Assembly: GCA_033648345.1 (NCBI GenBank)
Contig: GCA_033648345.1_4121.1
Direction: 5' to 3' (one strand)
DNA: 64,000 nucleotides
Origin: a phage
A program made the translations under genes and the position numbers. Each line of letters opens with the position of its first letter. The stretch's first letter is position 1. Positions 10,806 to 61,582 of the stretch are shown here, one piece after another. Below the pieces are notes generated by a model. It was not told the origin of the DNA and did no database searches. It saw nothing but the letters and a program-made list of their open reading frames with translations.

Positions 10806-11177
10806 ATGAATATAGATTTGAAAGGTGCAACCCGAACTGTCATACTCATTGGGGAATATGCTATCAAGATTCCAACCTTTAAAAGTTGGAAGCTATTCTT
10901 AACAGGGATGATAGCTAACCTCAATGAACGTTCTTGGATGCAGTACTCCAAGCGTAGTGATAGTGGTATCTGCCCTACGTTGTGGTCATCATGTACTGGA
11001 CTAGTAACTGTACAGAAACGTTGTAAGCCAGTACAACATAGGGGTTTATTTTGGGTGGAGTTGTGTGCTTTAGCATTGGATTCAGAGTTGAGTACTGACT
11101 TCTTCTATTCAGATGCGAAGCCAGAAAACTTTGGGTATCTGGGTGGTAAGTTAGTTAAACTTGATTATGGAGATTAA
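10806..11177 (+). CDS. minimal protein-kinase-like protein (123 aa)
   Basis: Motif order AIK … DAKPENFG … KLDYGD resembles kinase beta3-Lys, catalytic loop and DFG-like; ends just after DYG. Confidence 0.45.
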   Translation: MNIDLKGATRTVILIGEYAIKIPTFKSWKLFLTGMIANLNERSWMQYSKRSDSGICPTLWSSCTGLVTVQKRCKPVQHRGLFWVELCALALDSELSTDFFYSDAKPENFGYLGGKLVKLDYGD

Positions 11178-11178
11178 T

Positions 11179-11601
11179 ATGTACGCACTGTATAATAAAG
11201 AAAAGAAACAATTTGCTAAGGTTGAAAAATCGATTGATACATTTGGCATGTTTAAGTACTGTATTGTGACGGACCCATATGCTAACTTGTATTACGTTCT
11301 TGATGACGTATCAGTACTGCAACGATTGCTTGAACGTTCCAAAAGCCAATGTCAAGGTATCCATGATGGTTCAACTTATGAAACACCTGAGTGTTCCTAT
11401 GGCTATCTGGATGGGTATGAGATTGTGAAGTTGGGTGCATTGTTGATTAATGAGGAATTTATGAAACTATGTACATGTGATGATTGTGGTAAACAAATAC
11501 CAGAAAGTGAAGTATATCGTAATGAAACTGCATTCGGTGATGATGGTGACTACTGTCAGGATTGTTTTTACGAGAACCATTATGATTTTGGCGATGATTA
11601 A
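11179..11601 (+). CDS. hypothetical protein with Cys-rich C-terminus (140 aa)
   Basis: GGAG SD; C-terminal CTCDDCGK…CQDC suggests a zinc ribbon. Confidence 0.55.
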   Translation: MYALYNKEKKQFAKVEKSIDTFGMFKYCIVTDPYANLYYVLDDVSVLQRLLERSKSQCQGIHDGSTYETPECSYGYLDGYEIVKLGALLINEEFMKLCTCDDCGKQIPESEVYRNETAFGDDGDYCQDCFYENHYDFGDD

Positions 11602-11607
11602 AACAAA

Positions 11608-11640
11608 GGGTTGACTTCGGTCAGCCCTTTTTGTTATAAT
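11608..11640 (+). promoter_or_regulatory. terminator-hairpin/promoter composite (PeSL-like)
   Basis: GGGTTGAC-TTCG-GTCAGCCC hairpin + T-tract; TATAAT 11635-11640. Confidence 0.6.
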
Positions 11641-11668
11641 CATTTCATCGAAACGAGAGGATGAATAC

Positions 11669-12145
11669 ATGACACGCATTAACTTAGTACACGTTAAAGA
11701 ACTTGCTGACCAACATCTGATGGCTGAATATCGTGAACTCCCACGTGTATTTGGTGCTGTACAAAAACACGTTCAAGCACGTAAGCGTGTACGTGATTTC
11801 AAAATTAACAGTACTTACCTGTTAGGTTCAGGTCATGTAACATTCTTCTACAACAAGTTATTGTACTTACAGAAGCGTCATATTGAAATTGTTAACGAAT
11901 GTTTGCGTCGTGGTATGAAGATTCAAAACATTGAATTAAACGACATTAGCGGCTTCCCTGCTGAGTTTTGTAATGACTACGTACCATCGGAGTCAGAGAT
12001 TAAAATGTCTCGTGAGCGTTTGATTGAGAAGCTACAGATGAAGCCTACGTGGTATAAGTTTACTGATGTTGAATGTCCACAGTACGTTAAAGATATGTTG
12101 AATGAAATTGAAGAACAAATCAAAGATGAAATGAATAACTATTAA
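11669..12145 (+). CDS. denV: pyrimidine-dimer DNA glycosylase / endonuclease V (T4 DenV family)
   Basis: N-terminus MTRINL…[21 protein letters not shown]…KRVRDFKI…GHVTFFY…RPTWYK recalled as near-identical to T4 endonuclease V over most of the length. Confidence 0.93.
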
Positions 12146-12151
12146 AGGAAA

Positions 12152-12186
12152 AGGTTGACTTCGGTCAGCCATTTTTGTTATTATAG
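12152..12186 (+). promoter_or_regulatory. terminator-hairpin/promoter composite (PeSL-like)
   Basis: GGTTGAC-TTCG-GTCAGCC hairpin + T-tract, then -10-like TTATTATA. Confidence 0.55.
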
Positions 12187-12214
12187 CTCTATCGAAACGA
12201 ATGAGGATTAAGTA

Positions 12215-12472
12215 ATGATTAAATTAAAATTTGAAGGTATGCGTGATGGGAATGGTAACCTAATCATTACACGAGGTACTAAAGCAGTACGATGCTTAGA
12301 AGAACATGGTATTGAATTTACTATTCCATACGATGATATCAGGATTAAAGAGGATACGGTACTGGAATTGCCACTCACTACATTTGAAGAATTGAATGCA
12401 TTTTGTCAAACATATAATGCACTAATCACTTTCGATGAACGTAATTGTGTTATTGAATTTTTACAACACTGA
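12215..12472 (+). CDS. hypothetical protein (85 aa)
   Basis: ORF with GAGGA SD. Confidence 0.6.
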   Translation: MIKLKFEGMRDGNGNLIITRGTKAVRCLEEHGIEFTIPYDDIRIKEDTVLELPLTTFEELNAFCQTYNALITFDERNCVIEFLQH

Positions 12473-12491
12473 TGATTAAGTAATAAAGAAA

Positions 12492-12524
12492 GGGTTGACA
12501 CTAGTCAGCCCTTTTTGCTATAAT
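12492..12524 (+). promoter_or_regulatory. terminator-hairpin/promoter composite (PeSL-like, loop variant)
   Basis: GGGTTGACA-CTA-GTCAGCCC hairpin + T-tract; TATAAT 12519-12524. Confidence 0.55.
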
Positions 12525-12552
12525 CATTTCATCAACTCAAGAGGATAAAGAC

Positions 12553-13326
12553 ATGACCCGTACAGAGAAAGCAATCCAAATCGAAAAGAACTTCAACAGC
12601 ATGATGGCAGCTTTGGAATGTTTACTTGATACCCAAGCTAATTCAATCAATTCCCTGATTGTATCTGGTAAAGGTGGTGTTGGTAAAACTTACAACGTTG
12701 ACCAGCGTTTACAGAAAGCTGATGATAACTTTGAAATCGACTACAAAAAGATCAGCGGTAAAGTAACCACTATGGGTTTGTACGAAGCACTGTATCGTTC
12801 ACGTCATGCCGCTTCAGTACTGTTACTTGATGACGTTGATATCTTCTCTGACGAGACTAATATTGATTTGCTTAAAGCTGTGTTGGATACGTCAGAGAAG
12901 CGTGTAGTTTCTTACGCGACTTCTGCTAAGTACCTGGAACAGCAGGGTATCCCTAAGCAGTTTGAATTCCGTGGTAAAGTAATCTTTCTGACTAACAAAA
13001 ACCTGTCACAGATTGCTAAAGGTAAAAGCAGCTTAGCACCACACATCGATGCACTGATCACTCGTAGTATCTTTGTTGACCTGCAACTGTTCACCAACGA
13101 AGAAGTGATGATTCACATTGAGAACATCATGAACAAAACTAACATCCTTGAAAACAATGGTGTTAACAAAAATGGTTGTAAAGCAATCCTGAATTGGATG
13201 CTGAACAACGAAGAACGTTTGCGTAGTCCATCACTGCGTATGCCAGTACTGATCGCTGGTCTGTATAATAAATTCCCATACGATTGGGAATCAATGGCAG
13301 AGAATATGTTCCTTGAGAAAATTTAA
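12553..13326 (+). CDS. P-loop NTPase with deviant Walker A (257 aa)
   Basis: Walker A SGKGGVGKT and Walker B-like VLLLDDVD. Confidence 0.75.
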   Translation: MTRTEKAIQIEKNFNSMMAALECLLDTQANSINSLIVSGKGGVGKTYNVDQRLQKADDNFEIDYKKISGKVTTMGLYEALYRSRHAASVLLLDDVDIFSDETNIDLLKAVLDTSEKRVVSYATSAKYLEQQGIPKQFEFRGKVIFLTNKNLSQIAKGKSSLAPHIDALITRSIFVDLQLFTNEEVMIHIENIMNKTNILENNGVNKNGCKAILNWMLNNEERLRSPSLRMPVLIAGLYNKFPYDWESMAENMFLEKI

Positions 13327-49908: not shown

Positions 49909-50055
49909 ATGAAAGCATCAAAAAAGAGTAATACTAAGAAAGCACGTTCACCTTTCGCTGGGGTATTCCCTTTACGTTTCGTTGATGAAGTGGTTTCCTA
50001 CCCGCCGGGCCTTACTCCTGAGATGGTAGAAAGTTTGCGTAAATCTAAAAAATAG
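49909..50055 (+). CDS. hypothetical basic small protein (48 aa)
   Basis: Below track threshold; promoter + GGGGAGAAATGATTCTCCCC hairpin + AAGGA SD. Confidence 0.45.
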   Translation: MKASKKSNTKKARSPFAGVFPLRFVDEVVSYPPGLTPEMVESLRKSKK

Positions 50056-50136
50056 TACTTGCAATTAGTTTTTAAACGCGTATAATGTTTTACATAGAGG
50101 GGAGAAATGGTTCTCCCCAATAACAGGAGAATCAAA

Positions 50137-50289
50137 ATGAAACAATACAATGCTCGGTTTGATGTTACTATCGGCAACGGCAAAGGTCAATTTTCTTTCA
50201 GTACTCGCCGCAGTTATACAGAAAACTTCCTGCGTAATTGTGCACTGACCGCCGCACAAATTAAACATTACTTCCAGGCTAAAAAATGA
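50137..50289 (+). CDS. hypothetical small protein (50 aa)
   Basis: Promoter + hairpin + AGGAGA SD; track start 50107 is inside the hairpin. Confidence 0.55.
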   Translation: MKQYNARFDVTIGNGKGQFSFSTRRSYTENFLRNCALTAAQIKHYFQAKK

Positions 50290-50375
50290 AATCATTAGCT
50301 TATTACAGTTCAGCGGTGATCGGTGCATTGATCGCGGCATTGTTAGTAACCTATCTATTCTTTATGGTGATTTAA
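50286..50375 (+). CDS. tiny hydrophobic peptide (29 aa)
   Basis: ATGA overlap with previous stop; MKSLAYYSSAVIGALIAALLVTYLFFMVI. Confidence 0.35.
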   Translation: MKSLAYYSSAVIGALIAALLVTYLFFMVI

Positions 50376-50510
50376 ATGAATCCTAACGGTTTAATTTACA
50401 GTACTCCTAAAACGAAAGCAGATAAAGCGAAAGCACGTAAAGCGAAAGTAAAGGAGTACATTAAGCAAGGCATGACGCGAAAGGCGGCAGTACTGAAAGC
50501 TAAAAAATAA
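50376..50510 (+). CDS. Lys-rich small protein (44 aa)
   Basis: ATG immediately after previous stop (TAAATG). Confidence 0.35.
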   Translation: MNPNGLIYSTPKTKADKAKARKAKVKEYIKQGMTRKAAVLKAKK

Positions 50511-50520
50511 ATGAAAAAAG

Positions 50521-50554
50521 TGGTTGACTTCGGTCAGCCATTTTGCTATTATAT
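50521..50554 (+). promoter_or_regulatory. terminator-hairpin/promoter composite (PeSL-like)
   Basis: GGTTGAC-TTCG-GTCAGCC hairpin + TTTTGCTATTATAT. Confidence 0.6.
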
Positions 50555-50555
50555 A

Positions 50556-50606
50556 TTCATTGAGAGATAGCTCACTAGCCCACCGGGTGCATAAGTGTAT
50601 CTATTA
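50556..50606 (+). ncRNA. candidate small RNA/leader (element E) downstream of PeSL
   Basis: TTCATTGAGAGATAGCTCACTAGCCCACCGGGTGCATAAGTGTATCTATTATAT. Confidence 0.3.
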
Positions 50607-50724
50607 TATAAGTATTGAGTACTGAAAACTATTTTTAAAAAGTACTTGCAAACTATCTCAATAAGCGTATAATGTTTTACATCGAAAGGGGAAACGGTTT
50701 CCCCTGGTAATAAGGAAACAAATC

Positions 50725-51066
50725 ATGACTATTGCAATTGCTCAATCTAACTTTGAAAATGAAATCATCGCCCAGGCACTGCGTTTAAATGATGGTCGGG
50801 CCGAAATTAATTACGGTTTCAATTCAGGCGGTTGTGAAAAATATCAGTACTTTGTAACTGCTGATGGCGGTGTCCTGGGCATCAATACCGTTATTGTAAA
50901 CATTCAGAAAATTAATTTCAATGATCCAGACGATAGCCAGTTTTACATTGTAGGCGTAGACGTGAACTATGAGGATGACTCACTAACTGATGATCACACT
51001 GGCGAGCGGTTAGAAAGTGCATACGGTGAAGATGATTATCAGTCCGGTCCAGAAGATTTCGAATAA
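50725..51066 (+). CDS. hypothetical acidic protein (113 aa)
   Basis: Promoter + GGGGAAACGGTTTCCCC hairpin + AAGGAAA SD. Confidence 0.65.
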   Translation: MTIAIAQSNFENEIIAQALRLNDGRAEINYGFNSGGCEKYQYFVTADGGVLGINTVIVNIQKINFNDPDDSQFYIVGVDVNYEDDSLTDDHTGERLESAYGEDDYQSGPEDFE

Positions 51067-51157
51067 TATAAAAAATAGTTTGACAATAGATTATAGTACT
51101 GTATAATTAATTACATCAAGGGGAGAATAGTTCTCCCCAACTAAGAGGAAAAAGAAA

Positions 51158-51340
51158 ATGGCTGAATTAATCGCTCGGAATACAATTGCAGGCGTTGAAG
51201 ATGTAACATTATCATATGATTCAGATAAACAAGTTTACGTCGTTCGTTATGGTCTGATTGGTGTTAACGTTGATTATATTGATGAAGCCTTTGAAAAATA
51301 CTTTGAATTTATTAATATGGCTTATAATGATTATCGTTAA
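51158..51340 (+). CDS. hypothetical protein (60 aa)
   Basis: Promoter TTGACA…TATAAT + hairpin + AGAGGA SD. Confidence 0.6.
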   Translation: MAELIARNTIAGVEDVTLSYDSDKQVYVVRYGLIGVNVDYIDEAFEKYFEFINMAYNDYR

Positions 51341-51430
51341 AAAATAGTTTGACAATAGATTATAGTACTGTATAATAGTTTACATCAAGGGGAGAAAAAC
51401 TTCTCCCCACTAACAGAGAGAGAAAACAAA

Positions 51431-51643
51431 ATGGCTAATATCTGCACTGTACTGAAAAATGCAAAACAAGTTTTATTTTCTGATCACGATCATTTAAACA
51501 AGGATATTACGGGCGTTCGGAATATCAAAGATGTAAAAAGTGTTATGGGTATCTATTGCAATATGAAACGTGTCGGCACGTTCGGCGATAAAGTACTATA
51601 CCAGGCAGGGGATTATAACTTCACATTAACCATCATCAATTAA
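51431..51643 (+). CDS. hypothetical protein (70 aa)
   Basis: Near-duplicate of the promoter upstream of 51158. Confidence 0.6.
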   Translation: MANICTVLKNAKQVLFSDHDHLNKDITGVRNIKDVKSVMGIYCNMKRVGTFGDKVLYQAGDYNFTLTIIN

Positions 51644-51733
51644 AATATATTACCAGTACTATTGACAACGTTTGATAGTACTGTATAATAAGTTTTATAA
51701 ACAGTAGTTAACTTAACCTAAGAGAGAAACAAA

Positions 51734-51877
51734 ATGATCGCACTGGATTCATTCATCGACGCAGTACTGGCAAAAACTGGCGAGGATCTGACCGCAGAAC
51801 AATACGCGATGATCGAGCAATGTCAGCAAAACGGTAAATCGGTGAAAGATACTGTTAAGATTATCCGCAAGATGTAA
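51734..51877 (+). CDS. hypothetical small protein (47 aa)
   Basis: Below track threshold; promoter TTGACA…TATAAT + AGAGAGA SD. Confidence 0.45.
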   Translation: MIALDSFIDAVLAKTGEDLTAEQYAMIEQCQQNGKSVKDTVKIIRKM

Positions 51878-51886
51878 TATTATAGC

Positions 51887-51912
51887 CCACTGGTTAACGC
51901 TGGTGGGCTTTA
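51887..51912 (+). terminator. hairpin terminator containing a Chi octamer
   Basis: AGCCCACTGG-TTAAC-GCTGGTGGGCT hairpin; weak U-tract. Confidence 0.45.
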
Positions 51913-51982
51913 ATCATTTACCCTATACAATGCCAGTACTCAACCGTTTATCTCGTTAGAATGCGTTACAGGACGTTTGACA

Positions 51983-52180
51983 ATGATTAGCATGAAATCA
52001 GTACAAAAACAAATAGAAACATTATCAAAAATTAAACGTAAACAATACTCCTTAGAATATACAATCAATGGTAACTATCATCTAATGAAAGAAAATAATT
52101 TTATAGTCATTGATGAATCATTGCAAATTATTAGTATAGTACTGAAAGCATTAATCAATGACAGAAAAAAATTAAAATAA
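51983..52180 (+). CDS. hypothetical protein (65 aa)
   Basis: ORF; start uncertain (ATG 51983 or 51992). Confidence 0.45.
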   Translation: MISMKSVQKQIETLSKIKRKQYSLEYTINGNYHLMKENNFIVIDESLQIISIVLKALINDRKKLK

Positions 52181-52183
52181 TTG

Positions 52184-52212
52184 TTGACATACAATGCCAG
52201 TACTGGCATAAT
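52184..52212 (+). promoter_or_regulatory. sigma70-type promoter driving element E copy
   Basis: TTGACA 52184-52189, 17-nt spacer with AGTACTG, CATAAT 52207-52212. Confidence 0.55.
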
Positions 52213-52217
52213 ACTTA

Positions 52218-52266
52218 CATCAAGACGAGAACGTCACTAACCCATAGGGTGCACAAATGTAACTAT
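52218..52266 (+). ncRNA. candidate small RNA/leader (element E)
   Basis: CATCAAGACGAGAACGTCACTAACCCATAGGGTGCACAAATGTAACTAT; no ORF. Confidence 0.3.
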
Positions 52267-52508
52267 ATAATATCGATCAATAAATGATCAAAAAAGTACT
52301 GGATCAATTTAGCATAAGGAGTATAATTCTGATCAATTCTTGATCAAAGGCAATATACGCAGTTGAATTTATATAGACAGTACAAAGGCGTTACTATCCG
52401 TGGTAATGCTGGTGGATATGTAGTATCATATGGTTTGAATAAGATTAGCACTAGTAGTATTATTGTAGCATTACAGTACTATAGTATTTTTATAATGAGG
52501 TTAAAATA

Positions 52509-52766
52509 ATGGCTGTTGGATTCGCGAAGGACGGGGCCGAGCAAGACGAGATTAACGCAGTGATTCAGGCCGCTGTAAACCACGCTAGAAAGCAAATTAA
52601 CGCACAAAGAGAATCACTGGTACATTGCCTCGACTGCGGCGATAAAATCCCTGAGAATCGACGCCAGGCCGTTATAGGGTGCATGTATTGTATTACTTGC
52701 CAGGAGGATCATGATAGTACTTTTAAAAGAGATCCGCGTAATTGTTGGCATAGATCTATGAGATAA
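52509..52766 (+). CDS. TraR/DksA-type C4 zinc-finger protein (85 aa)
   Basis: CLDCGDKIPENRRQA…CMYCITC four-cysteine motif. Confidence 0.7.
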   Translation: MAVGFAKDGAEQDEINAVIQAAVNHARKQINAQRESLVHCLDCGDKIPENRRQAVIGCMYCITCQEDHDSTFKRDPRNCWHRSMR

Positions 52767-52830
52767 AAAGTAATTGACAGTACTGAAAGATAGTGTATAA
52801 TGTTTTATATCTTAACTGAGGATTGAAATC

Positions 52831-53187
52831 ATGGGTATTCAACACATCACGCGTACTACTGACAATGGCGAGATCACTGGTTATCAGGTACAGGGCAAAG
52901 TAGCACAATTGCAGTACTGGTTTGTTAAACGTGGAATCATTGCACCGGATCTTGATTATGACCGTGTAGCGTTTATTGATTCTCTTTATGTTGATCCTGA
53001 TAGTCGGGGCAATGGTGAAGGTAACGAATTAATGAATGCCTTTATTGATGCCGCCGATGATTCAGATTGTATCATCTTAGAATGCGATACGGGAGAAGAT
53101 AACGCCTTTAATCTTAAAGAATGGTACGAAGGCTTCGGATTCGAGGTATTGATAGATAGTGAATATCCTATCATGATTTTATCATAG
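52831..53187 (+). CDS. possible GNAT-family acetyltransferase (118 aa)
   Basis: IDSLYVDPDSRGNGEGNELMNAFID resembles acetyl-CoA binding motif A; assignment tentative. Confidence 0.45.
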   Translation: MGIQHITRTTDNGEITGYQVQGKVAQLQYWFVKRGIIAPDLDYDRVAFIDSLYVDPDSRGNGEGNELMNAFIDAADDSDCIILECDTGEDNAFNLKEWYEGFGFEVLIDSEYPIMILS

Positions 53188-53266
53188 TACTTGCATTTAG
53201 TTTTCAGTACTGTTATAGTACTTGCATCAAGGGGAAACATCTTCCCCTACTAAGAGGAAATAAAAA

Positions 53267-53455
53267 ATGGAAAACTTATCAAGTATTTTAGTACAAGATG
53301 ATTTCGGTAATCCTGGAAGTGCTATCATTGTTCGGGGCAATAAAGCAACGTTTGTTATTGCTGGTGGACCCGTACAGCGTAGCATTAAAAATAATGCTGT
53401 TACCATTAATAATGTACGCTATCGCTTAGATAAAGAATTAATTCATAAACTGTAA
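53267..53455 (+). CDS. hypothetical protein (62 aa)
   Basis: Promoter + hairpin + AGAGGA SD. Confidence 0.6.
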   Translation: MENLSSILVQDDFGNPGSAIIVRGNKATFVIAGGPVQRSIKNNAVTINNVRYRLDKELIHKL

Positions 53456-53482
53456 TATTAATTTAATAGAGGATAACAATAA

Positions 53483-53806
53483 ATGTACATTCATACTACT
53501 ATCACAAAGGAAGTCCGTTGCCAGTTCGAAAGTATTCCGGGCGTATGTTTCATCACTGGTACGTTTTCCCCTGGTGATCGTGATAATCCAGTACTGTTAC
53601 AATTACGCCATCCATCATGGGATAAAGCATTTGATCTACCGTTGAATGAATTCGCAACTACTGCTGAAAAGTACATTAAAAATATTCGCGAGAATGATCG
53701 ACTATTCATTAATGCTTTTAGTGATTCCGCGTTAAGCGAGATCCACGGCGTATTGGTTGCAATCATGGAATCAATGCAGAAAACTAAATTCAAACAAGGT
53801 GAATAA
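53483..53806 (+). CDS. hypothetical protein (107 aa)
   Basis: AGAGGA SD. Confidence 0.6.
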   Translation: MYIHTTITKEVRCQFESIPGVCFITGTFSPGDRDNPVLLQLRHPSWDKAFDLPLNEFATTAEKYIKNIRENDRLFINAFSDSALSEIHGVLVAIMESMQKTKFKQGE

Positions 53807-53889
53807 AAACTATTGACAATGCAATCCAGTACTGTATAATAGTTTACATGAAGGGGAGAAATGATTCTCCCCACTAAGAGGAAAGAAAA

Positions 53890-54102
53890 ATGCAAGGTCA
53901 ACTAATCGTTCGTAAATGGTCTGATACTAACGAAAAACCGTGGGATGTACAATACATCGCCCCAAATGGTGAATCCAGATATCAACCAGGTGTAACGCAT
54001 AGTACTGAGCAATTCGCCGCCGCTCATCGCGAACGTCTGTTACAATCAATGCAGCAAGGTTCCGGTGAAAAATTCATTCAGGATCATTGGCTGAAAGATT
54101 AA
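53890..54102 (+). CDS. hypothetical protein (70 aa)
   Basis: Promoter + GGGGAGAAATGATTCTCCCC hairpin + AGAGGA SD. Confidence 0.6.
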   Translation: MQGQLIVRKWSDTNEKPWDVQYIAPNGESRYQPGVTHSTEQFAAAHRERLLQSMQQGSGEKFIQDHWLKD

Positions 54103-54188
54103 AAAGTACTTGCACTGTACTGAATAAAGTGTATAATGTTTTATATCGGAAGGGGAATAGTTCCCCTCCGAACAAAGAGGAAAGTATA

Positions 54189-54362
54189 ATGGTCCAGGTA
54201 GAATTAACAGTACTGAAAGATCTGTTTTATCGGATTGGTACTACTGGCGAATATCCGAAGGGTGATAATGCAAAACTTTACGTATCACTCGACTTATGGC
54301 AACGCGAACAATTAGCAACGGCCTGGCGTAAAGGCAAAGCAGATCGAGAGGTGAAAGCATGA
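54189..54362 (+). CDS. hypothetical small protein (57 aa)
   Basis: Promoter + GGAAGGGGAATAGTTCCCCTCC hairpin + AGAGGA SD; track start 54087 is in the promoter. Confidence 0.55.
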   Translation: MVQVELTVLKDLFYRIGTTGEYPKGDNAKLYVSLDLWQREQLATAWRKGKADREVKA

Positions 54363-54508
54363 AAGAATTCTTATTTGAAGTAGTGTTTCAAGGTGTCGGC
54401 AATAACCAACTGATTCGATCAAGTGGTTATAATGTTAACCAGGCATGGAATAACATTAAACAAATGTACCCGAACGCTATCACATATCGCAACCCGAAAG
54501 AAGTTTAA
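54359..54508 (+). CDS. hypothetical small protein (49 aa)
   Basis: ATGA overlap with previous stop. Confidence 0.4.
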   Translation: MKEFLFEVVFQGVGNNQLIRSSGYNVNQAWNNIKQMYPNAITYRNPKEV

Positions 54509-54522
54509 AAATAATTGAAAAA

Positions 54523-54558
54523 GGGATTGACTCCGGTCAGTCCCTTTGCTATTATATA
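54523..54558 (+). promoter_or_regulatory. terminator-hairpin/promoter composite (PeSL-like)
   Basis: GGGATTGAC-TCCG-GTCAGTCCC hairpin + TTTGCTATTATATA. Confidence 0.6.
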
Positions 54559-54603
54559 CGCATAGAAACAAATTAGCCCACCGGGTGCATAAATGTATCT
54601 ATT
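54559..54603 (+). ncRNA. candidate small RNA/leader (element E) downstream of PeSL
   Basis: …AATTAGCCCACCGGGTGCATAAATGTATCTATTG followed by a Chi octamer at 54608. Confidence 0.3.
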
Positions 54604-54690
54604 GTTTGCTGGTGGCTAGTACTATCAAGTACTGAAAACTATTTTTAAAAAGTACTTGCAAAGTATCACGATAAGCGTATAATGTTTTAC

Positions 54691-54770
54691 ATCAGGACGG
54701 GGAACGAAACAAGTAACCCCGTTAAGTAGTCCAGGAGTAAGACATACGAAAAACTCCCCTGATAAAATAG
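54691..54770 (+). ncRNA. conserved non-coding leader between tandem promoters (element L)
   Basis: Near-identical to 43731-43810. Confidence 0.35.
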
Positions 54771-54832
54771 TTTGACAATAGAAAGTAAACGAGTATAATA
54801 CTTACATCAACCACTGATAAGGAAACATTAAA

Positions 54833-55108
54833 ATGCGGATTCTACTGACAGCTAACGAAATCGAACAAGTACTGACTACTAACCTGGAAGACTGGAAACG
54901 TGAAGCAGATATCCAGGCGGTTCAATGGCTTAACGATAAGTTAACGCCGGATGACTTAAGCAAGATTGTAGATCCTCAATTCTACGAAGATATTCACGAC
55001 ACCGCGTTAAGCGTCGAGGATGTACTTGATAAGCACTACATTGATACTGATTTACATGTTTACGGTCGTAAAAACTTTATCACTATTCACGACATTTACA
55101 ATACTTAA
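54833..55108 (+). CDS. hypothetical protein (91 aa)
   Basis: AAGGAAA SD. Confidence 0.6.
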   Translation: MRILLTANEIEQVLTTNLEDWKREADIQAVQWLNDKLTPDDLSKIVDPQFYEDIHDTALSVEDVLDKHYIDTDLHVYGRKNFITIHDIYNT

Positions 55109-55196
55109 GTATTGACAAAGTATCTTAGTACTGTATAATAGTTTACATCAAGTGAGGGGAAACGGTTCCCCTCCTAACAAAGAGAGAGAAATAAAA

Positions 55197-55379
55197 ATGG
55201 CTAAGTGCACTATCTGCAAGAAAGAAATAGTATTAGTTCCAAGTGCCCGTGAACGTGCCGCTCGGTTTGGTGGCAAAGCGTCAGACTATACAAAAATGTT
55301 TACTGCCCATACAGCTTGCCAGGTAGCAAAACGTTCACAAGAAAGCGTAGAATTAATGCGTAAACTTTCCAAAAAATAA
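55197..55379 (+). CDS. small Cys-containing protein (60 aa)
   Basis: Promoter TTGACA…TATAAT + GAGGGGAAACGGTTCCCCTC hairpin; MAKCTICKK…HTAC. Confidence 0.55.
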   Translation: MAKCTICKKEIVLVPSARERAARFGGKASDYTKMFTAHTACQVAKRSQESVELMRKLSKK

Positions 55380-55465
55380 GTATTGACAAAGTATCTTAGT
55401 ACTGTATAATAGTTTACATCAAGTGAGGGGAAACGGTTCCCCTCCTAACAGAGAGAGAAATAAAA

Positions 55466-55789
55466 ATGGCTATGATCCTTACCCAGAAAGTGGAATTGAA
55501 AATTGTAACCTCCTTTGACATTAAAGTTAATCGGTGGACTGATTCACACGGCAATACTTACCACTCTTGCTACGTGTCTGCGTTAATTGGCGACCGCTGG
55601 GAAGACCTGGGACACGAAACCTTTACATACGGTTACGGTACGCAAGGCGAATACACTGGTTTGGAGATCATTAAAGAAACCGTTATAGGTTTCAACCCGA
55701 AAGAAAAAGTTATTCACCGCATCGAAAAAGAGATTAACAAAGAAATAACAGTTCGCTACTACGATGTAAAACGTAAGAAAGACATGTAA
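55466..55789 (+). CDS. hypothetical protein (107 aa), paralogue of 48606-48950
   Basis: Exact duplicate of the promoter module upstream of 55197. Confidence 0.65.
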   Translation: MAMILTQKVELKIVTSFDIKVNRWTDSHGNTYHSCYVSALIGDRWEDLGHETFTYGYGTQGEYTGLEIIKETVIGFNPKEKVIHRIEKEINKEITVRYYDVKRKKDM

Positions 55790-55884
55790 TAGAATCCATT
55801 TAAAGTACTATTTGACATTGCCCAGATAGTACTTTATAATAGACTCTAACTTGTAGTACTAACTCAACTAATAGGATGTATACC

Positions 55885-56280
55885 ATGATTACTAAATTCT
55901 ACGCTACCCGTGAAGCTGCCCGTATTGTTGCACGCGAGGAAGGAGCAGCATTTAAAGACATGGGAACGACAGCACCGAAAGGTCAACGCTGGGCCGTACA
56001 GTTCAAAGAAATCTCTGATATTGTGAATTCACCTGAGCCAGTACTGACAGCAGCAGAACTAAAACGAGCGGATATGCTGGCGGCAATACTTGACGCACAA
56101 GATGAGTTTATCGCTGATTCTGATATCAAAGTACAGGTAAACCACACCGCATGGACTCACGCGGATCACCTGGCAAACCTTAAGCGTCCAAGTGAACTGA
56201 TTCGCAACCAGAAAGAGATCCGACATGATCGTAAGGGTAATCGTGTAACAGTATACAGTAAACGCCGCCAGGTTATCTAA
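55885..56280 (+). CDS. hypothetical protein (131 aa), paralogue of 42862-43128
   Basis: Promoter TTGACA…TATAAT; AGGATG SD then ATG 55885. Confidence 0.6.
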   Translation: MITKFYATREAARIVAREEGAAFKDMGTTAPKGQRWAVQFKEISDIVNSPEPVLTAAELKRADMLAAILDAQDEFIADSDIKVQVNHTAWTHADHLANLKRPSELIRNQKEIRHDRKGNRVTVYSKRRQVI

Positions 56281-56302
56281 TAACTTGCAGTACTAACAAC
56301 AC

Positions 56303-56328
56303 GGCGGGATCAGTTCCCGCCTTTTTTA
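56303..56328 (+). terminator. rho-independent terminator
   Basis: GGCGGGATCAGTTCCCGCC hairpin + TTTTTT. Confidence 0.7.
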
Positions 56329-56341
56329 TAGGACAAACAAA

Positions 56342-56596
56342 ATGATTAAGGTTCAACTATATAAAGATAACATCTTACGGGTACACTATAAAGCACCGAA
56401 GAGAATCATCACAAAGGCCGTACAGCTTGCTAATGAGTTTATTAATGGTAACCTATTACCGAGGAAGTTAAGCAACGGGAAACTGCGTGTAATCGACGTG
56501 GACACTAACAACAGGATAGTAATCGAGAACACAGGAAAGATAAACCTTTATGAGCATCAACAATACAATAAGAAAATAAAACTAATATCACGTTGA
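56342..56596 (+). CDS. hypothetical protein (84 aa)
   Basis: ORF, weak SD. Confidence 0.5.
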   Translation: MIKVQLYKDNILRVHYKAPKRIITKAVQLANEFINGNLLPRKLSNGKLRVIDVDTNNRIVIENTGKINLYEHQQYNKKIKLISR

Positions 56597-56649
56597 CAGT
56601 ACTCAATTGTTTTAGTATTATGTACACATACCAACACGGGAGAAACAAA

Positions 56650-56868
56650 ATGAAATTATCTAAAATCGAAAAGAAAACTATTGATGAAGCAGTTAAGCAC
56701 GGTTATACCTTTCGTAATGATTCACATTTTACCAATTATCAACAAGGGTATCGTACTATTAAAAAACTTATTGACAAAGGTTTATTAGTTGAAGTCAATA
56801 ACGGCAATGGCATTGAGTATCAACCAACACAGGACGCATTTTATTTTAAGAAATATAATATTATCTAA
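56650..56868 (+). CDS. hypothetical protein (72 aa)
   Basis: Promoter TTGACAGTACTCAA…; GGGAGA SD then ATG 56650. Confidence 0.55.
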   Translation: MKLSKIEKKTIDEAVKHGYTFRNDSHFTNYQQGYRTIKKLIDKGLLVEVNNGNGIEYQPTQDAFYFKKYNII

Positions 56869-56926
56869 TTGACAGTACTCAAATGTTTTAGTACTATATG
56901 TACATACCAACACGGGGGAAAACAAA

Positions 56927-57169
56927 ATGATTACTTTAGAAAAACGTATCAAAGAAACTACATCGCTGGTGGAATTGTTAACAGTACTCAAATGTAAAAC
57001 AACACCATTCAGCACGCCGGACTTTATTAATATGGTTGATGTTAACGGTCGTTATCGCATTGCAGTAGAACATGGAACAGCGAAAGTATTCAGTACTAAA
57101 AACACTAAGGAAGTGATTCACGCGGTTAGTGTGAAAAAAGTGGTTGCCATTGATAGTAAAGTACTGTAA
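56927..57169 (+). CDS. hypothetical protein (80 aa)
   Basis: Near-duplicate of the promoter upstream of 56650. Confidence 0.6.
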   Translation: MITLEKRIKETTSLVELLTVLKCKTTPFSTPDFINMVDVNGRYRIAVEHGTAKVFSTKNTKEVIHAVSVKKVVAIDSKVL

Positions 57170-57200
57170 TATAGTTTCATTAACTCAAGGAGTAAATGCA

Positions 57201-57785
57201 ATGCGTAATTATACTAAATTCATCCGTACACTGTCAGAAATGGAAACCAACAAAGAGATCCTTTCAGCTTGTCGGTTAGCTGGCCTGGAGATCATCGGTG
57301 CTGGTTCTTCCCGTATAGTATTCGCTTTAAATGATCGGTTAGTGATTAAGGTCGCGAATTGTGATGCGGGTGTAGAACAAAATGAAACTGAATGTAAGGT
57401 ATGGAATTTTTTAGACTATGACCGCCCTCAGTTGAAACAGTACTTTGCAAAGGTGCATATGCATTTATGCGATCCTGATAATATGTTTATCGTTATGGAT
57501 CGGTTGAGTACTGCAAGCAAAGGCAGTGTGAAGCACGTTAACGCGTGCAATGAATTAAAGTACAATATTAAACGTAATGCAATCGAACGCCAGCACCGCT
57601 TTGCTGATGCACTACAACACGTTGATGATACATTATCAACACTAACGATAAGAGATATCAGAAAACAGAATATCGGCCAGGATCGTAATGGCCTTATTAA
57701 AGTACTTGATTACGGTTTAACCAGCAATATCTGGAATCAGTACTATAAAAAGCGTGATGTGGCAGCAAGTAAAGTAACACGATAA
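57201..57785 (+). CDS. protein-kinase-like protein (194 aa)
   Basis: AAGGAG SD; GAGSSRIVF (Gly-rich loop), VIKV, IRDIRKQNIG (catalytic-loop-like), KVLDYG (DFG-like) in kinase order. Confidence 0.55.
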   Translation: MRNYTKFIRTLSEMETNKEILSACRLAGLEIIGAGSSRIVFALNDRLVIKVANCDAGVEQNETECKVWNFLDYDRPQLKQYFAKVHMHLCDPDNMFIVMDRLSTASKGSVKHVNACNELKYNIKRNAIERQHRFADALQHVDDTLSTLTIRDIRKQNIGQDRNGLIKVLDYGLTSNIWNQYYKKRDVAASKVTR

Positions 57786-57800
57786 AAAAAGATTAAAAAA

Positions 57801-57836
57801 GGGATTGACTCCGGTCAGTCCCTTTGCTATTATATA
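57801..57836 (+). promoter_or_regulatory. terminator-hairpin/promoter composite (PeSL-like)
   Basis: GGGATTGAC-TCCG-GTCAGTCCC hairpin + TTTGCTATTATATA. Confidence 0.6.
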
Positions 57837-57892
57837 TTCATTGAGAGATAACTCACTGACCCATAGGGTGCGGAAGTGTATCTATTATATAA
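57837..57892 (+). ncRNA. candidate small RNA/leader (element E) downstream of PeSL
   Basis: TTCATTGAGAGATAACTCACTGACCCATAGGGTGCGGAAGTGTATCTATTATAT. Confidence 0.3.
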
Positions 57893-58008
57893 GCATTCAG
57901 TACTGAAAACTATTTTAAAAAAGTACTTGCATTGTACTTAGAATCAAGTATAATGTTTTATATCGAGAGGGGGAAATGGTTCTCCCTGGTACATTAAGGA
58001 ATAAAATC

Positions 58009-58416
58009 ATGACTACTACTAATCAAGCTCGGTCCATCGCCAACGATAAAAATCATGCTGCAATGGTCGCTGGTTACATTGAAGCTATGCAATTCAGTAC
58101 TGTACACAATGAGAACGGCGAATACCTGGAAGATTATGAATTATCAGAGCAAGCCCATCAAGCGGCAGTGATTGCATGTTCACGTTTCCTTGCTGTACAT
58201 GGTGAAGATATGGAAACAGTACAAAAACACCATAATCCTGATTATACTTATAGTCATGCAGGTCATGATCTCTTTCTTACTCGCGAAGGTCACGGCACTG
58301 GTTTTTGGGATCGTGATATCGGTCACTATGATGATATATTCACTAAGTACTGCGAAGAAATCAACGTTTGCGATCCCTATGTAGGCGATGATAATCTAAT
58401 CTATATGGGCGAATAA
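58009..58416 (+). CDS. hypothetical protein (135 aa)
   Basis: Promoter + GGGGGAAATGGTTCTCCC hairpin + AAGGAA SD; track start 57976 is in the hairpin. Confidence 0.6.
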   Translation: MTTTNQARSIANDKNHAAMVAGYIEAMQFSTVHNENGEYLEDYELSEQAHQAAVIACSRFLAVHGEDMETVQKHHNPDYTYSHAGHDLFLTREGHGTGFWDRDIGHYDDIFTKYCEEINVCDPYVGDDNLIYMGE

Positions 58417-58504
58417 AAGTATTTGACAAAGTATATCAGTACTGTATAATAGTTTACATCAAGGGGAGAATAGTTCTCCCCCACCAATAAAAGGAAACAA
58501 AATT

Positions 58505-58777
58505 ATGTCCAGCTACTCCGCTACTATGATCATTAAAGATATGAACGGTAATCCTACTTCTGCTGGTGGATCATTTGGAAACATTAATTTAGATGGTCGG
58601 TTATCCATGCAATCAGCCATCGATGCAGCGAAAGAAGTTTTTAAGAATGAATGTACTGTAAGTAAGCTGGATTATATGGGATTCGCTATCGAAAAAACTA
58701 ATCGTTTTGTGAACTACAAAAATCCACTGATGATCGATACTAACCTGAAAGCAAACGAAGTGGGGTACTTATTATGA
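58505..58777 (+). CDS. hypothetical protein (90 aa)
   Basis: Promoter TTGACA…TATAAT + hairpin + AAGGAA SD. Confidence 0.6.
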   Translation: MSSYSATMIIKDMNGNPTSAGGSFGNINLDGRLSMQSAIDAAKEVFKNECTVSKLDYMGFAIEKTNRFVNYKNPLMIDTNLKANEVGYLL

Positions 58778-58965
58778 CAGTTGAAGAAGTTAAAAAAGTA
58801 CTGGCAGTACTACGCTATCATAATCATTGCAAGGTGAAGAATGATCCTGATTATCTCGATTCATCCCTGGAAGAGGATACACTACAAGCAATAAGCCATA
58901 TGCAAAAAATGCTTAAGCGTATGACCGAAAAGAATAGGCCGGACTATATCGGAAATAAAATTTAA
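58774..58965 (+). CDS. hypothetical protein (63 aa)
   Basis: ATGA overlap with previous stop. Confidence 0.55.
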   Translation: MTVEEVKKVLAVLRYHNHCKVKNDPDYLDSSLEEDTLQAISHMQKMLKRMTEKNRPDYIGNKI

Positions 58966-59052
58966 AAAGTACTTGCATTGTAGTTAGATTAACGTATAAT
59001 GTTTTATATCGAGAGGGGGAAATGGTTTCCCCTCAAGTCCAGGAGATACACC

Positions 59053-59316
59053 ATGAACACTATCGAAATCACTATCAATGCACACGTATACGACAACGTA
59101 GTACTGCAAACTACTATGACCGCTAATGATACCAGTACTTTGCGGAATACTGTTATTAGTGCCGTATGTGCTGCAATCGGTGATGTATCCCTGGAAAATG
59201 CAGAACATATCAACAACGGTTTCACTATGTGCAAGCGTGATAACGCAAAACATATCATCGTGGAAGGTTACGGCGGTGTAGAATTTAATGTTTATATGAA
59301 AAAAGTACTTGCATAA
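59053..59316 (+). CDS. hypothetical protein (87 aa)
   Basis: Promoter + hairpin + AGGAGA SD then ATG 59053. Confidence 0.6.
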   Translation: MNTIEITINAHVYDNVVLQTTMTANDTSTLRNTVISAVCAAIGDVSLENAEHINNGFTMCKRDNAKHIIVEGYGGVEFNVYMKKVLA

Positions 59317-59383
59317 TAACTAAAACAAAGTATAATGTTTTGCATAGGGGGAGATATCCTCCCCCACTAAAAGGAGTAATAAA

Positions 59384-59608
59384 ATGGCTAACTTTGATGA
59401 ACTGATGCGGGAAGTAGCTAACCTGGCAGAAGAGAAGAAATCATTCGATTCTATCTATAACACCGCTCACCGTGATTCAGTACTGGCATGTAACCAGGAT
59501 CAAAAAGATGAACTAATCGCCACCTATCATGAAGCATGGAAGTACTACCGACAATGGGAGAAAGAAGAAAGTGAGTCTACCATTGACGGCCTCAATAATC
59601 TAATCTAA
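59384..59608 (+). CDS. hypothetical protein (74 aa)
   Basis: Promoter + GGGGGAGATATCCTCCCCC hairpin + AAGGAG SD. Confidence 0.6.
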   Translation: MANFDELMREVANLAEEKKSFDSIYNTAHRDSVLACNQDQKDELIATYHEAWKYYRQWEKEESESTIDGLNNLI

Positions 59609-59684
59609 AAGTTTTATTTCAGTACTATTGACATAGCTTGATAGTACTGATGTAATAACTTTACTAACTACAAGGGGAAACATA

Positions 59685-59942
59685 ATGGAACAGTTCACAC
59701 AATATCGGGTAAATCCACAAGCTATGGCCTACGTAGAAGACCATAAAACGTTACCAGTACTGCAACCAGTTAAAGGCCGTATCTATCGTGGCCTTGCCTG
59801 GGATACGGCCCAGGATGGATATAAAACCGTCGCCGTGGGGATGTATTGCGGGAATGGTGAATGGTTTGATCCTAGCAATCCGATTGCACTTGACAGTACT
59901 GAAAAAATGAAATGGGCCGACTACATCGAAGATATTTCATAA
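59685..59942 (+). CDS. hypothetical protein (85 aa)
   Basis: Promoter TTGACA…; AAGGGGA SD. Confidence 0.6.
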   Translation: MEQFTQYRVNPQAMAYVEDHKTLPVLQPVKGRIYRGLAWDTAQDGYKTVAVGMYCGNGEWFDPSNPIALDSTEKMKWADYIEDIS

Positions 59943-60032
59943 AAACTATTTGACAGTACTAACCAGTAATGTATAATGTTTTACATAGAGCGGGGGAATA
60001 GTTCTCCCGCCAATAGTTTGGAGTTAAACATT

Positions 60033-60233
60033 ATGTCTATCGCTATCGCCCTGGTTGAAGTACTGAAAGAAGCTAAAGCCAACCAGATCGACGTAAAGAT
60101 CCAGGAACTACAAAACGGCTTAATCGGCTGTACTTGTACCGCTGGTGGAGCGGCAGACTATCGAGAACACGAATCACTCGAATCACTGGTTCGGTATCTT
60201 ACCATGATCGTTGATGATTGGAGAATCATCTAA
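60033..60233 (+). CDS. hypothetical protein (66 aa)
   Basis: Promoter + GCGGGGGAATAGTTCTCCCGC hairpin + GGAG SD; contains Chi at 60141. Confidence 0.55.
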   Translation: MSIAIALVEVLKEAKANQIDVKIQELQNGLIGCTCTAGGAADYREHESLESLVRYLTMIVDDWRII

Positions 60234-60251
60234 CAAAAAAAGAATAAAAAA

Positions 60252-60288
60252 GGGATTGACTCCGGTCAGTCCCTTTGCTATTATATAC
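60252..60288 (+). promoter_or_regulatory. terminator-hairpin/promoter composite (PeSL-like)
   Basis: GGGATTGAC-TCCG-GTCAGTCCC hairpin + TTTGCTATTATATA. Confidence 0.6.
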
Positions 60289-60332
60289 GCATAGACAAAA
60301 ACTAGCCCACAGGGTGCATAGGTGTATCTAAA
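60289..60332 (+). ncRNA. candidate small RNA/leader (element E) downstream of PeSL
   Basis: CGCATAGACAAAAACTAGCCCACAGGGTGCATAGGTGTATCTAAAAT; Chi at 60364 follows. Confidence 0.3.
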
Positions 60333-60480
60333 ATATATAGTTAATAACGGTGAGTAACTATCTGCTGGTGGAGTGAAAACTATTAATAAAAAAAACTATT
60401 GACAAAGTATATCAGTACTGCAATAATGTATCTCGTAGGGCGGCAATGGTGCGACGGCCCACAAAGTTAGGAGATTCAAA

Positions 60481-60813
60481 ATGAGTACTTCAATCGCTAT
60501 CGTTAAAGCTTTCATCCGTACCAATGTTTCATCTGTATTCATCGACGGTCTGGATCGGGAAGTAGAATACTCAATCATTATCGCACAGACTGCAAACGGT
60601 GCTCGGTATATCCTTAATAATAGTGAAGCAAATCACTACTACTTCACTAAAGCTACTGGCTTTAAACGCATCGATGCTGACGTAGTATACACTAAGATGA
60701 ATAAGCTGGTAGACAAGATTAACGCGAAAGGTACTATCGATTTACAGTACTGGACCGAAACCGATCCAGAATATGGATCTCACCGCTACCTGAATCCAGG
60801 TATTAAAATGTAA
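60481..60813 (+). CDS. hypothetical protein (110 aa)
   Basis: Promoter TTGACA…; AGGAGA SD. Confidence 0.6.
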   Translation: MSTSIAIVKAFIRTNVSSVFIDGLDREVEYSIIIAQTANGARYILNNSEANHYYFTKATGFKRIDADVVYTKMNKLVDKINAKGTIDLQYWTETDPEYGSHRYLNPGIKM

Positions 60814-60902
60814 AAAGTACTTGCATAGTACTTAGATTCATGTATAATGTTTTACATAGAGAGGGGGAAATGGTTCTCCCTCCTAAATTAAGGAGTTTTA
60901 TC

Positions 60903-61304
60903 ATGACCTTCTCAATCACTTCCTTCGCTGACGTTTTAGTACTGGCTCGGACTTTTGGTAAAGCTGGCCTTGAGCACGCTGTAAGTAATGGTCATATGCA
61001 CCCTGAATATTGCCGCATCATTGGAAGCTGTAAACGTTGGGCTGTGTCCCGTAACATTGAGATTGAAAACTTCAATGACGGTAACAACGAATATACAGTT
61101 GATGCAGTATTCGAAGTCGTTGATCTCGGCGGTATCTATAACACTAACCTGAATGATGTGCGTATCGTTCGCACGGGGTTCGGTGCTTATGATGTATCTA
61201 TCCGTGAAGCTATGGACAAGGGATACATTAGCAAGGACCAGTTAGCTTACATCATGCAGCAAACTAAGGAACGTAACGAAGCACGCACTATCTTAGGACT
61301 GTAA
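60903..61304 (+). CDS. hypothetical protein (133 aa)
   Basis: Promoter + GAGGGGGAAATGGTTCTCCCTC hairpin + AAGGAG SD; track start 60840 is inside the -10 box. Confidence 0.6.
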   Translation: MTFSITSFADVLVLARTFGKAGLEHAVSNGHMHPEYCRIIGSCKRWAVSRNIEIENFNDGNNEYTVDAVFEVVDLGGIYNTNLNDVRIVRTGFGAYDVSIREAMDKGYISKDQLAYIMQQTKERNEARTILGL

Positions 61305-61372
61305 GCGTTACACATCACCAAACATCATAGGCCGCCTTGTAGCGGCCTTAACTATATCAGGAGGGCATACAT

Positions 61373-61582
61373 ATGTTCTATACAGTATACAGCGTTCTAG
61401 GTACTATTGCAGGCGTACATGATAACGTCAATGATGCTATGCGTACAGTACTGCAACAGGTTCCACTAAAGCCTAAGACCATTAAGCAGATGACAGCACG
61501 ACTAACCAGGGCGACGGCTGGCGTGGAAGTATGGCAGGACTATGGGGATACACAGATAATCGTAAGCGTAACGAAGGATTAA
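61373..61582 (+). CDS. hypothetical protein (69 aa)
   Basis: CAGGAGG SD. Confidence 0.6.
   Translation: MFYTVYSVLGTIAGVHDNVNDAMRTVLQQVPLKPKTIKQMTARLTRATAGVEVWQDYGDTQIIVSVTKD

Follow-up and report, generated by a model that had tools for sequence, protein, structure and literature searches.

A T4-type endonuclease V with a linker-less acidic C-terminal tail in an Asteriusvirus-like jumbo coliphage

Endonuclease V of phage T4 (DenV, T4-pdg; structures 2END, 1VAS, and 2FCC) is the reference for the gene analysed here. In the T4 enzyme, Glu23 is the catalytic residue, and Arg3, Arg22, Arg26, Arg117, and Lys121 are contacts to the DNA and to the lesion phosphates. The nucleophile is the alpha-amino group of Thr2, which becomes free once the initiator Met is removed. 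A second described system is formed by the acidic C-terminal tails of T7 gp2.5, T4 gp32, and E. coli SSB, which compete with DNA for the binding surface and recruit partner proteins. DenV is also found in Rak2-like jumbo phages; it is mentioned in comparative papers (PMC5259590, PMC7824862, PMC11895373) and is already annotated in dozens of genomes. A literature search returned no usable description of any DenV C-terminal extension. Finally, promoter-early stem-loop (PeSL) cassettes have been proposed as mediators of modular shuffling in T4-like phages (PMC2839356, PMC4122927).

The denV gene described below lies in a 64,000-nucleotide stretch of phage DNA (contig GCA_033648345.1_4121.1 of assembly GCA_033648345.1), the whole of which is called the window. 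A sequence-only reading had placed a DenV homologue of 158 aa at 11669-12145; the coordinates, the + strand, and the open reading frame are exact, and no in-frame start codon occurs between the preceding stop and the denV ATG. The gene and its parts are as follows.

11669-12145, + strand: denV coding sequence, ATG start, 158 codons and a TAA stop; predicted pyrimidine-dimer DNA glycosylase/AP lyase of the T4 endonuclease V family
11655-11661, + strand: denV ribosome-binding site GAGAGGA, 7 nt 5' of the ATG and kept in relatives
11669-12061, + strand: catalytic core, codons 1-131, collinear with T4 DenV residues 1-131
12062-12103, + strand: proximal tail, codons 132-145; the predicted C-terminal helix starts at residue 138
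12104-12142, + strand: distal tail, codons 146-158, the acidic amphipathic terminal 13-mer

The DNA around denV is 85-98% identical, in patches, to the jumbo coliphages 121Q, PBECO4, WPEC3, CMSTMSU, and UE-S1. Judged by its DNA and protein neighbours, the window belongs to an Asteriusvirus-like (121Q/PBECO4, Rak2-like) jumbo coliphage of about 350-385 kb and not to a T4-like phage. The earlier suggestion that the gene anchors the phage lineage needs a qualification: the gene is of the T4 type, yet its carrier is not T4-like. No copy was found in the complete E. coli genomes searched, and the phage is therefore not a resident element there. In NCBI nr a 100%-identical 158 aa protein (P0001) is entered as pyrimidine dimer DNA glycosylase/endonuclease V; this is an unexceptional jumbo-coliphage DenV orthologue that had been annotated before. 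What the analysis adds is descriptive: i) the C-terminus of DenV in this clade comes in interchangeable alleles; ii) one of these carries a conserved, predicted acidic helix that nearly neutralizes the charge of the enzyme; and iii) the allele in the window is a linker-deleted derivative of it.

The assignment to the endonuclease V family rests on several independent matches. BLASTP aligned the protein to T4 DenV with 83 of 131 residues identical (63%) and no gaps, a similarity to endonuclease V far beyond chance. The Pfam model PF03013 (Pyr_excise) matched with 56.9 bits (cut-off 23; E 2.7e-15), PHROG 1183 ("endonuclease V N-glycosylase UV repair enzyme") with an E of 4.5e-58, and T4 endonuclease V (2END) with an E of 4.4e-53, residues 1-131 aligning to 1-131. 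NCBIfam gave no DenV model match, its best hit being a chance one of 18.7 bits against a cut-off of 370. The N-terminus reads MTRINL, with Thr directly after the initiator Met, and the core carries Thr2, Arg3, Gln15, His16, Arg22, Glu23, Arg26, Arg117, Lys121, and Trp128-Tyr129-Lys130. Across 89 homologues, no substitution occurs at M1, T2, R3, Q15, H16, R22, E23, R26, or R117, and K121 is kept in at least 90%. Position 23 is precisely where the mutant structures 1ENJ and 1ENK in the PDB depart from the wild type. In the C-terminal aromatic segment W128, Y129, and K130 are kept, Tyr131 of T4 is conservatively replaced by Phe, and Tyr132 by Thr. All the Rak2-like jumbo-phage DenVs compared have WYKF(T/S) at this place, versus WYKYY (residues 128-132) in T4.

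The predicted structure is that of the T4 enzyme as well. An AF2 model built from the 89 homologues has a mean pLDDT of 93.8 (87-98 in the core), with helices at 14-36, 64-80, and 108-124. Foldseek superimposed it on 2END with an E of 1e-15, a target-normalised TM of 0.94, and an rmsd of 1.2 Å over 133 columns. Because of the homology, the essential residues, and the modelled fold, we infer that the protein is an active pyrimidine-dimer glycosylase/AP lyase. With the chemistry taken from T4, the Thr2 alpha-amino group, aided by Glu23, would attack C1' of the 5' pyrimidine in a cyclobutane dimer; the glycosyl bond would be cut first and the backbone after it, by beta-elimination, which would initiate base-excision repair of the UV-damaged phage DNA. 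The view that the phage carries its own UV-damage repair is, to the extent that homology speaks to it, well supported.

Compared with T4 endonuclease V, the window protein thus has the same modelled all-alpha fold, the MTRINL start, the catalytic and contact residues and, presumably, the glycosylase/AP-lyase chemistry. It differs in the replacements at residues 131 and 132 and in three further respects: T4 ends with YGKAIYA at residue 138, where the window protein has 27 unrelated residues; the pI is 9.4 in T4 versus 7.7 for the whole window protein; and the gene sits in a jumbo phage of ~350 kb and not in a member of the Straboviridae. As a whole, the gene is very probably a functional T4 endonuclease V orthologue that is expressed from a hairpin promoter and carries an accessory acidic tail from a long-tail allele. 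As a separate observation, the core is 63-66% identical to the DenVs of T4-like phages with no insertions or deletions; for phage groups so distant this seems high, and denV may have been exchanged horizontally among enterobacterial phages.

The distinctive part of the protein is its C-terminus. The homology to T4 ends at residue 131, leaving 27 non-homologous tail residues versus 7 in T4. The protein had been described as about 20 residues longer than the T4 enzyme and as ending in an acidic tail; T4 DenV is 138 aa long in NC_000866, so that the difference is exactly 20, and the tail has a net charge of -6. The DenVs of 121Q, UE-S1, WPEC3, Turkey3, PBECO4, RaK2, XbC2, GAP32, one T4-like phage, and T4 were aligned, and the alignment was then extended to metagenomic relatives. 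A proximal extension, TDVExPxY(Y/V)xxM, is common to all the Rak2-like jumbo-phage DenVs compared. Three alleles are distinguished by what follows it.

Short allele, 144-147 aa (WPEC3, Turkey3, PBECO4, RaK2, GAP32, CBB): stops after the proximal extension
Long allele, 167-179 aa (121Q, UE-S1, ph0011, XbC2, P0010, P0018): a linker, then a terminal motif
Window allele, 158 aa (window, P0001, P0002): the terminal motif directly, without the linker

The linker of the long allele is rich in Ser, Thr, and Asn and is 9, 13, or ~21 residues long; the terminal motif after it is E[IV]E[EQR]QIK[DEN]EMN[NL][YE]. The terminal 13-mer of the window protein fits this motif and is identical to that of 121Q. 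The long form was seen in the genome records of 19 Asteriusvirus phages and, independently of these, in XbC2; of the long-tail alleles, the P0003 cluster alone comprises 134 sequences. The DenVs of 121Q (gp217, AIT14107.1, 171 aa), UE-S1, and ph0011 (167 aa) are 96% identical to the window protein over the aligned positions; for the 121Q type the identity is 88% by tblastn with the 13-aa gap counted. They share with it the terminal 13-mer, the stop codon, a remnant of the cassette that follows, and the hairpin-promoter upstream, and differ in the Ser/Asn-rich linker of 13 aa (121Q) or 9 aa (ph0011) that the window protein lacks. The short-tail DenVs share the core and the proximal extension, but have ~13-16 tail residues, no acidic terminal motif, and a tail charge of -1 to -3. 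Some of them are very close to the window gene: WPEC3, Turkey3, and PBECO4 show 0-2 differences in the first ~300 nt, yet end at 144-145 aa.

The 9-21-residue linker of the long allele is absent from the window protein, which is thus a linker-less derivative. Relative to 121Q, 39 nt (13 aa) are missing, and in 121Q these are bordered on both sides by GATATG; in the window a single GATATG stands at the junction, at 12092-12097 (Asp142-Met143). Because the repeats in 121Q flank exactly the missing 39 nt, the window allele is read from the aligned sequences as an in-frame 39-nt deletion between 6-bp direct GATATG repeats of a long-tail allele. The gene as a whole is mosaic: over the first 300-380 nt it nearly coincides with WPEC3/Turkey3, and over the last ~100 nt with 121Q. 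Its 5' two-thirds are closer to WPEC3/Turkey3 than to 121Q.

An extension of this kind could arise as an artefact if a private mutation, or an error in sequencing or assembly, removes a stop codon or imitates a deletion. The exact 158 aa form occurs in no phage GenBank record, and the long forms there all align with gaps, as such an error would have it. The same protein is nonetheless found in NCBI nr and, again identical, on one independent Logan contig. A 94%-identical 158 aa allele (P0002) is present on 7 contigs from at least 4 samples. In all of these contigs, the identical one included, genes of 85 aa and 257 aa always lie downstream, and the upstream genes vary. The deletion, moreover, is in frame with the GATATG repeat at its borders, and the terminal motif and stop codon agree with 121Q. 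An artefact is therefore extremely improbable and, in effect, already refuted.

The gene is set between two copies of a repeated element that combines a hairpin with a promoter. The element and its copies are listed here; promoters and terminators were called as consensus matches.

11605-11640, + strand: upstream hairpin-promoter cassette, AAAGGGTTGAC-UUCG-GTCAGCCCTTT, then a T run
12153-12184, + strand: downstream hairpin-promoter cassette, GGTTGAC-UUCG-GTCAGCC, ATTTTT, -35 TTGACT, -10 TATTAT
235, 3829, 4485, 6564, 7246, 11609, 12153, 50522, 54525, 57803, and 60254, + strand: copies of the hairpin core

In the upstream cassette the -35 TTGACT (11611-11616) lies inside the 5' arm and is followed, after an 18-nt spacer, by a TG-extended -10 TATAAT (11635-11640). 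The promoter matches the consensus at 11 of 12 positions, and the hairpin has a dG of -17.6 kcal/mol (z -5.6). This cassette is kept 5' of denV in Asteriusvirus phages, RaK2, and XbC2, with a loop that is mostly UUCG and is GAGA in XbC2. It is probably both the terminator of the preceding gene and an early sigma-70 promoter of denV. The downstream hairpin (dG -13.8 kcal/mol, z -4.2) is a probable denV terminator combined with a promoter of the next gene (12215-12472). Placed between them, denV probably has its own promoter, embedded in a hairpin, for early transcription by the sigma-70 RNA polymerase of the host; as far as the consensus matches go, the transcript would be roughly monocistronic and would stop at the next hairpin. 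In 121Q and UE-S1 the downstream cassette breaks off after the loop, where the gene order departs from that of the window, and it is absent after the short-tail alleles.

The 18-nt hairpin core GGTTGAC-TTCG-GTCAGCC occurs 11 times in the window versus 0.01 expected, always on the + strand. An A-rich stretch in which the preceding gene has its stop codon leads into each copy; a T run and TATAAT come after it, and the -35 TTGACT lies inside the 5' hairpin arm. Promoter-like sites as such are not in excess in the region (21 versus 21.1 expected); it is the repeated cassette itself that is highly non-random. By sequence features the flanking elements are of the PeSL type as defined in PMC4122927, a paper in which neither 121Q nor GAP32 is mentioned. 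Like the PeSL cassettes of T4-like phages, they combine a stem-loop with a near-consensus sigma-70 promoter, are repeated on one strand between small early genes, and are placed at junctions where the gene content differs between close relatives. Unlike those, they have the -35 within the 5' hairpin arm and are carried by a Rak2-like jumbo phage. By analogy, PeSL-like modular shuffling probably also shapes the early regions of jumbo phages. The idea that the DenV tail is merely the translated edge of this cassette was tried and rejected: when the 11 copies were aligned together with 90 nt upstream, just ~10 A-rich nt 5' of the hairpin were shared.

AF2 predicts a single tail helix at 138-156 (pLDDT 82-94) in the window protein and, in the 171 aa form, one helix of 32 residues at 138-169 (pLDDT ~77-83). 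The net charge is +7 in the core (pI 9.5) and -6 in the tail; the long forms have a pI of 5.5-6.6. Residues 138-158 have a helical hydrophobic moment of 0.50, a value higher than in any of 2000 shuffles, and, as read from the sequence, V140, L144, I147, I151, M155, and Y158 fall on one face with 3-4 spacing. The tail is thus predicted to be one acidic amphipathic helix that extends a short helix common to the Rak2-like jumbo-phage DenVs.

A helix of this form might serve in self-association or partner binding, for example as a short coiled coil that dimerizes the glycosylase or tethers it to a replication or repair protein. The prediction of a single long helix (19 residues here, 32 in the 171 aa form) and the hydrophobic face with its moment would suit such a role, and a conserved end behind a variable linker resembles tethered interaction motifs. 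The ~2.5 heptads are, however, short for a stable coiled coil, and a deletion of 13 residues does not amount to an integral number of heptads. Copies of the motif were looked for elsewhere without success: no other open reading frame of the window contains or ends in EMNN, IEEQ, or NNY, and a tblastn search with the 22-aa tail among 50,697 phage records (E up to 10) returned the denV of the 19 Asteriusvirus records only. The neighbouring genes vary and are without known function, and no conserved partner gene is linked to denV. A coiled-coil or oligomerization role is therefore quite improbable, and a weaker rival to charge tempering or docking, which are taken up below.

Extensions at this end are widespread in the family. 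When 1.84 billion cluster representatives were searched exhaustively with HMMER, 1430 clusters of the family were recovered. The best 150 of these have a median length of 145 aa, and 30 of them reach 158 aa or more; 24 of 146 of the best-matching representatives extend by at least 27 residues past the core. A C-terminal extension is unremarkable for the family, and T4 is at the short end. The charge is another matter: with a crude motif-based definition of the tail, none of 27 other tails of 20-60 aa has a net charge of -4 or below, and by that crude definition a strongly acidic tail is unusual in the family.

Some constraint on the tail is suggested by the sequence comparisons, with the conservation of the 13-mer drawn from few independent lineages. 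The linker changes its length in frame only (0, 9, 13, or ~21 aa) and the terminal 13-mer is kept, 10-13 of its 13 residues being identical where the cores are 65-100% identical. Between 121Q and XbC2, for example, the cores are ~70% identical and the downstream DNA is unrelated, and the 13-mer is 10/13 identical; the replacements in it are conservative, and one further change is synonymous. The 121Q and UE-S1 proteins differ by 5 replacements in the linker and by 1 in the 13-mer. A compensating charge in the cores was also looked for in the short- versus long-tail relatives and was not seen, both close groups being at +7 to +8; compensation was rejected for the wider sets too (long-tail +5 to +8, short-tail +3 to +8).

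The same comparisons show, at the level of sequence, that the 3' ends of denV turn over fast and are frequently exchanged. Other, unrelated tails are found at the same junction (P0008, P0014, P0017, and P0006). Since close relatives lack the acidic helix, the tail is apparently a lineage-specific accessory module that is dispensable for a viable phage. It may then be a neutral by-product, one of a set of peptides swapped at a recombination-prone cassette junction and tolerated at a solvent-exposed C-terminus. The mosaic structure of the gene, WPEC3/Turkey3-like in its 5' part and 121Q-like in its 3' part, speaks for this, as do at least 5 unrelated tail types after the same TDVExPxY segment and the coexistence of short and long alleles both in Asteriusvirus and in Mimasvirus (GAP32 versus XbC2). 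The downstream gene content changes with each allele, the truncated cassette after the tail in 121Q and UE-S1 is a mark of recombination within the cassette, and heterogeneous C-terminal extensions are common across the family. Set against a neutral tail are the persistence of the 13-mer through at least 3 linker lengths, all in frame, and between genera with 65-72% core identity; the faster divergence of the linker between 121Q and UE-S1; an amphipathicity stronger than is expected from random AT-rich read-through; and the position of the tail-coding DNA outside the repeated cassette. Neutrality is accordingly a serious possibility, although short of an even one.

The functional reading is that the tail offsets part of the charge of the basic enzyme and so moderates how it binds undamaged DNA and slides along it, and/or that the tail docks a partner. 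The acidic helix would weaken the electrostatic hold of a very basic enzyme on undamaged DNA, and may offer a docking handle for a partner protein. This reading, drawn by analogy to the acidic tails of T7 gp2.5, T4 gp32, and SSB, is put forward tentatively. As in those proteins, the order is a basic DNA-binding domain, a flexible segment, and then an acidic end, which here terminates in an aromatic residue. Unlike them, the window tail has no sequence similarity to those tails and is predicted to be helical, not disordered, and the enzyme is a double-stranded DNA glycosylase where the others are single-stranded DNA-binding proteins. If the tail does modulate the scanning of non-target DNA, it would offer a natural way into the classic problem of lesion search by T4 endonuclease V.

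A more specific form of self-regulation can be imagined, in which the acidic helix is a built-in regulator that, without DNA, folds onto the basic face as a DNA mimic and so tunes sliding or the hand-over to a partner. We regard this as unlikely. If it were true, the variable linker would set the reach of the helix, and the long, linker-less, and short alleles would constitute a natural "scanning-range" series.

The genes around denV are small and of the early type without informative Pfam or PHROG function, apart from a 257 aa AAA-like protein, and the Pfam and PHROG searches of the neighbours gave no sign of a repair operon. The gene is in a hyperplastic spot (11000-12600, compared with L001-L004 and L010-L016) where the inserts just upstream of denV differ between close relatives: an HNH endonuclease in WPEC3; GmrSD_N, HNH, and a 278 aa gene in L011; and a putative N6-adenine methyltransferase in ph0011. 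The genes just downstream differ as well. The gene upstream of denV (11179-11598, + strand) encodes 140 aa, of which a PHROG 8563 match covers residues 1-87 only. The extra ~50 C-terminal residues contain a CxxC...CxxC pattern (CTCDDCGKQ...YCQDCF) and an acidic end, DFGDD; relatives of this product are versions of 89-95 aa, and the sequence suggests an added zinc-ribbon-like module. The 257 aa protein (12553-13326, + strand) matches the AAA_16 P-loop family weakly, short of the Pfam cut-off, and strongly matches PHROG 1250 (phrog_1250), of unknown function; the ph0011 record notes it as 'Phi92_gp231'. Its gene is linked to the 158 aa and 167 aa denV alleles in all contigs examined. In Salmonella phage SD-2_S15 (P0006, 242 aa) the DenV core, to residue ~136, is fused to an unrelated C-terminal region of 107 aa; this is perhaps a genuine gene fusion, or else an artefact of a deletion or of annotation.

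The window holds 0 tRNA genes and 0 Rfam families at the gathering score. A second cassette is repeated on the + strand at 50000-61500, with at least 12 copies in 11 kb. It consists of an A-rich stretch, AAAAAGTACTTGCA or TTTGACA, 17 nt, GTATAATGTTTTACAT with the GC hairpin GGGGAGAAATGGTTCTCCCC directly after it, a ribosome-binding site, and a small open reading frame, and looks like an early promoter with a 5'-UTR stem-loop. In addition, four of the hairpin-promoter cassettes have a conserved element of ~30 nt, TAGCCCACCGGGTGCATAAGTGTATCTATT, about 30 nt after the -10. The element has no Rfam or tRNA match and is located at the following sites.

about 50575-50605: TAGCCCACCGGGTGCATAAGTGTATCTATT, first site
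about 54575-54601: TAGCCCACCGGGTGCATAAGTGTATCTATT, second site
about 57850-57879: TAGCCCACCGGGTGCATAAGTGTATCTATT, third site
about 60305-60330: TAGCCCACCGGGTGCATAAGTGTATCTATT, fourth site
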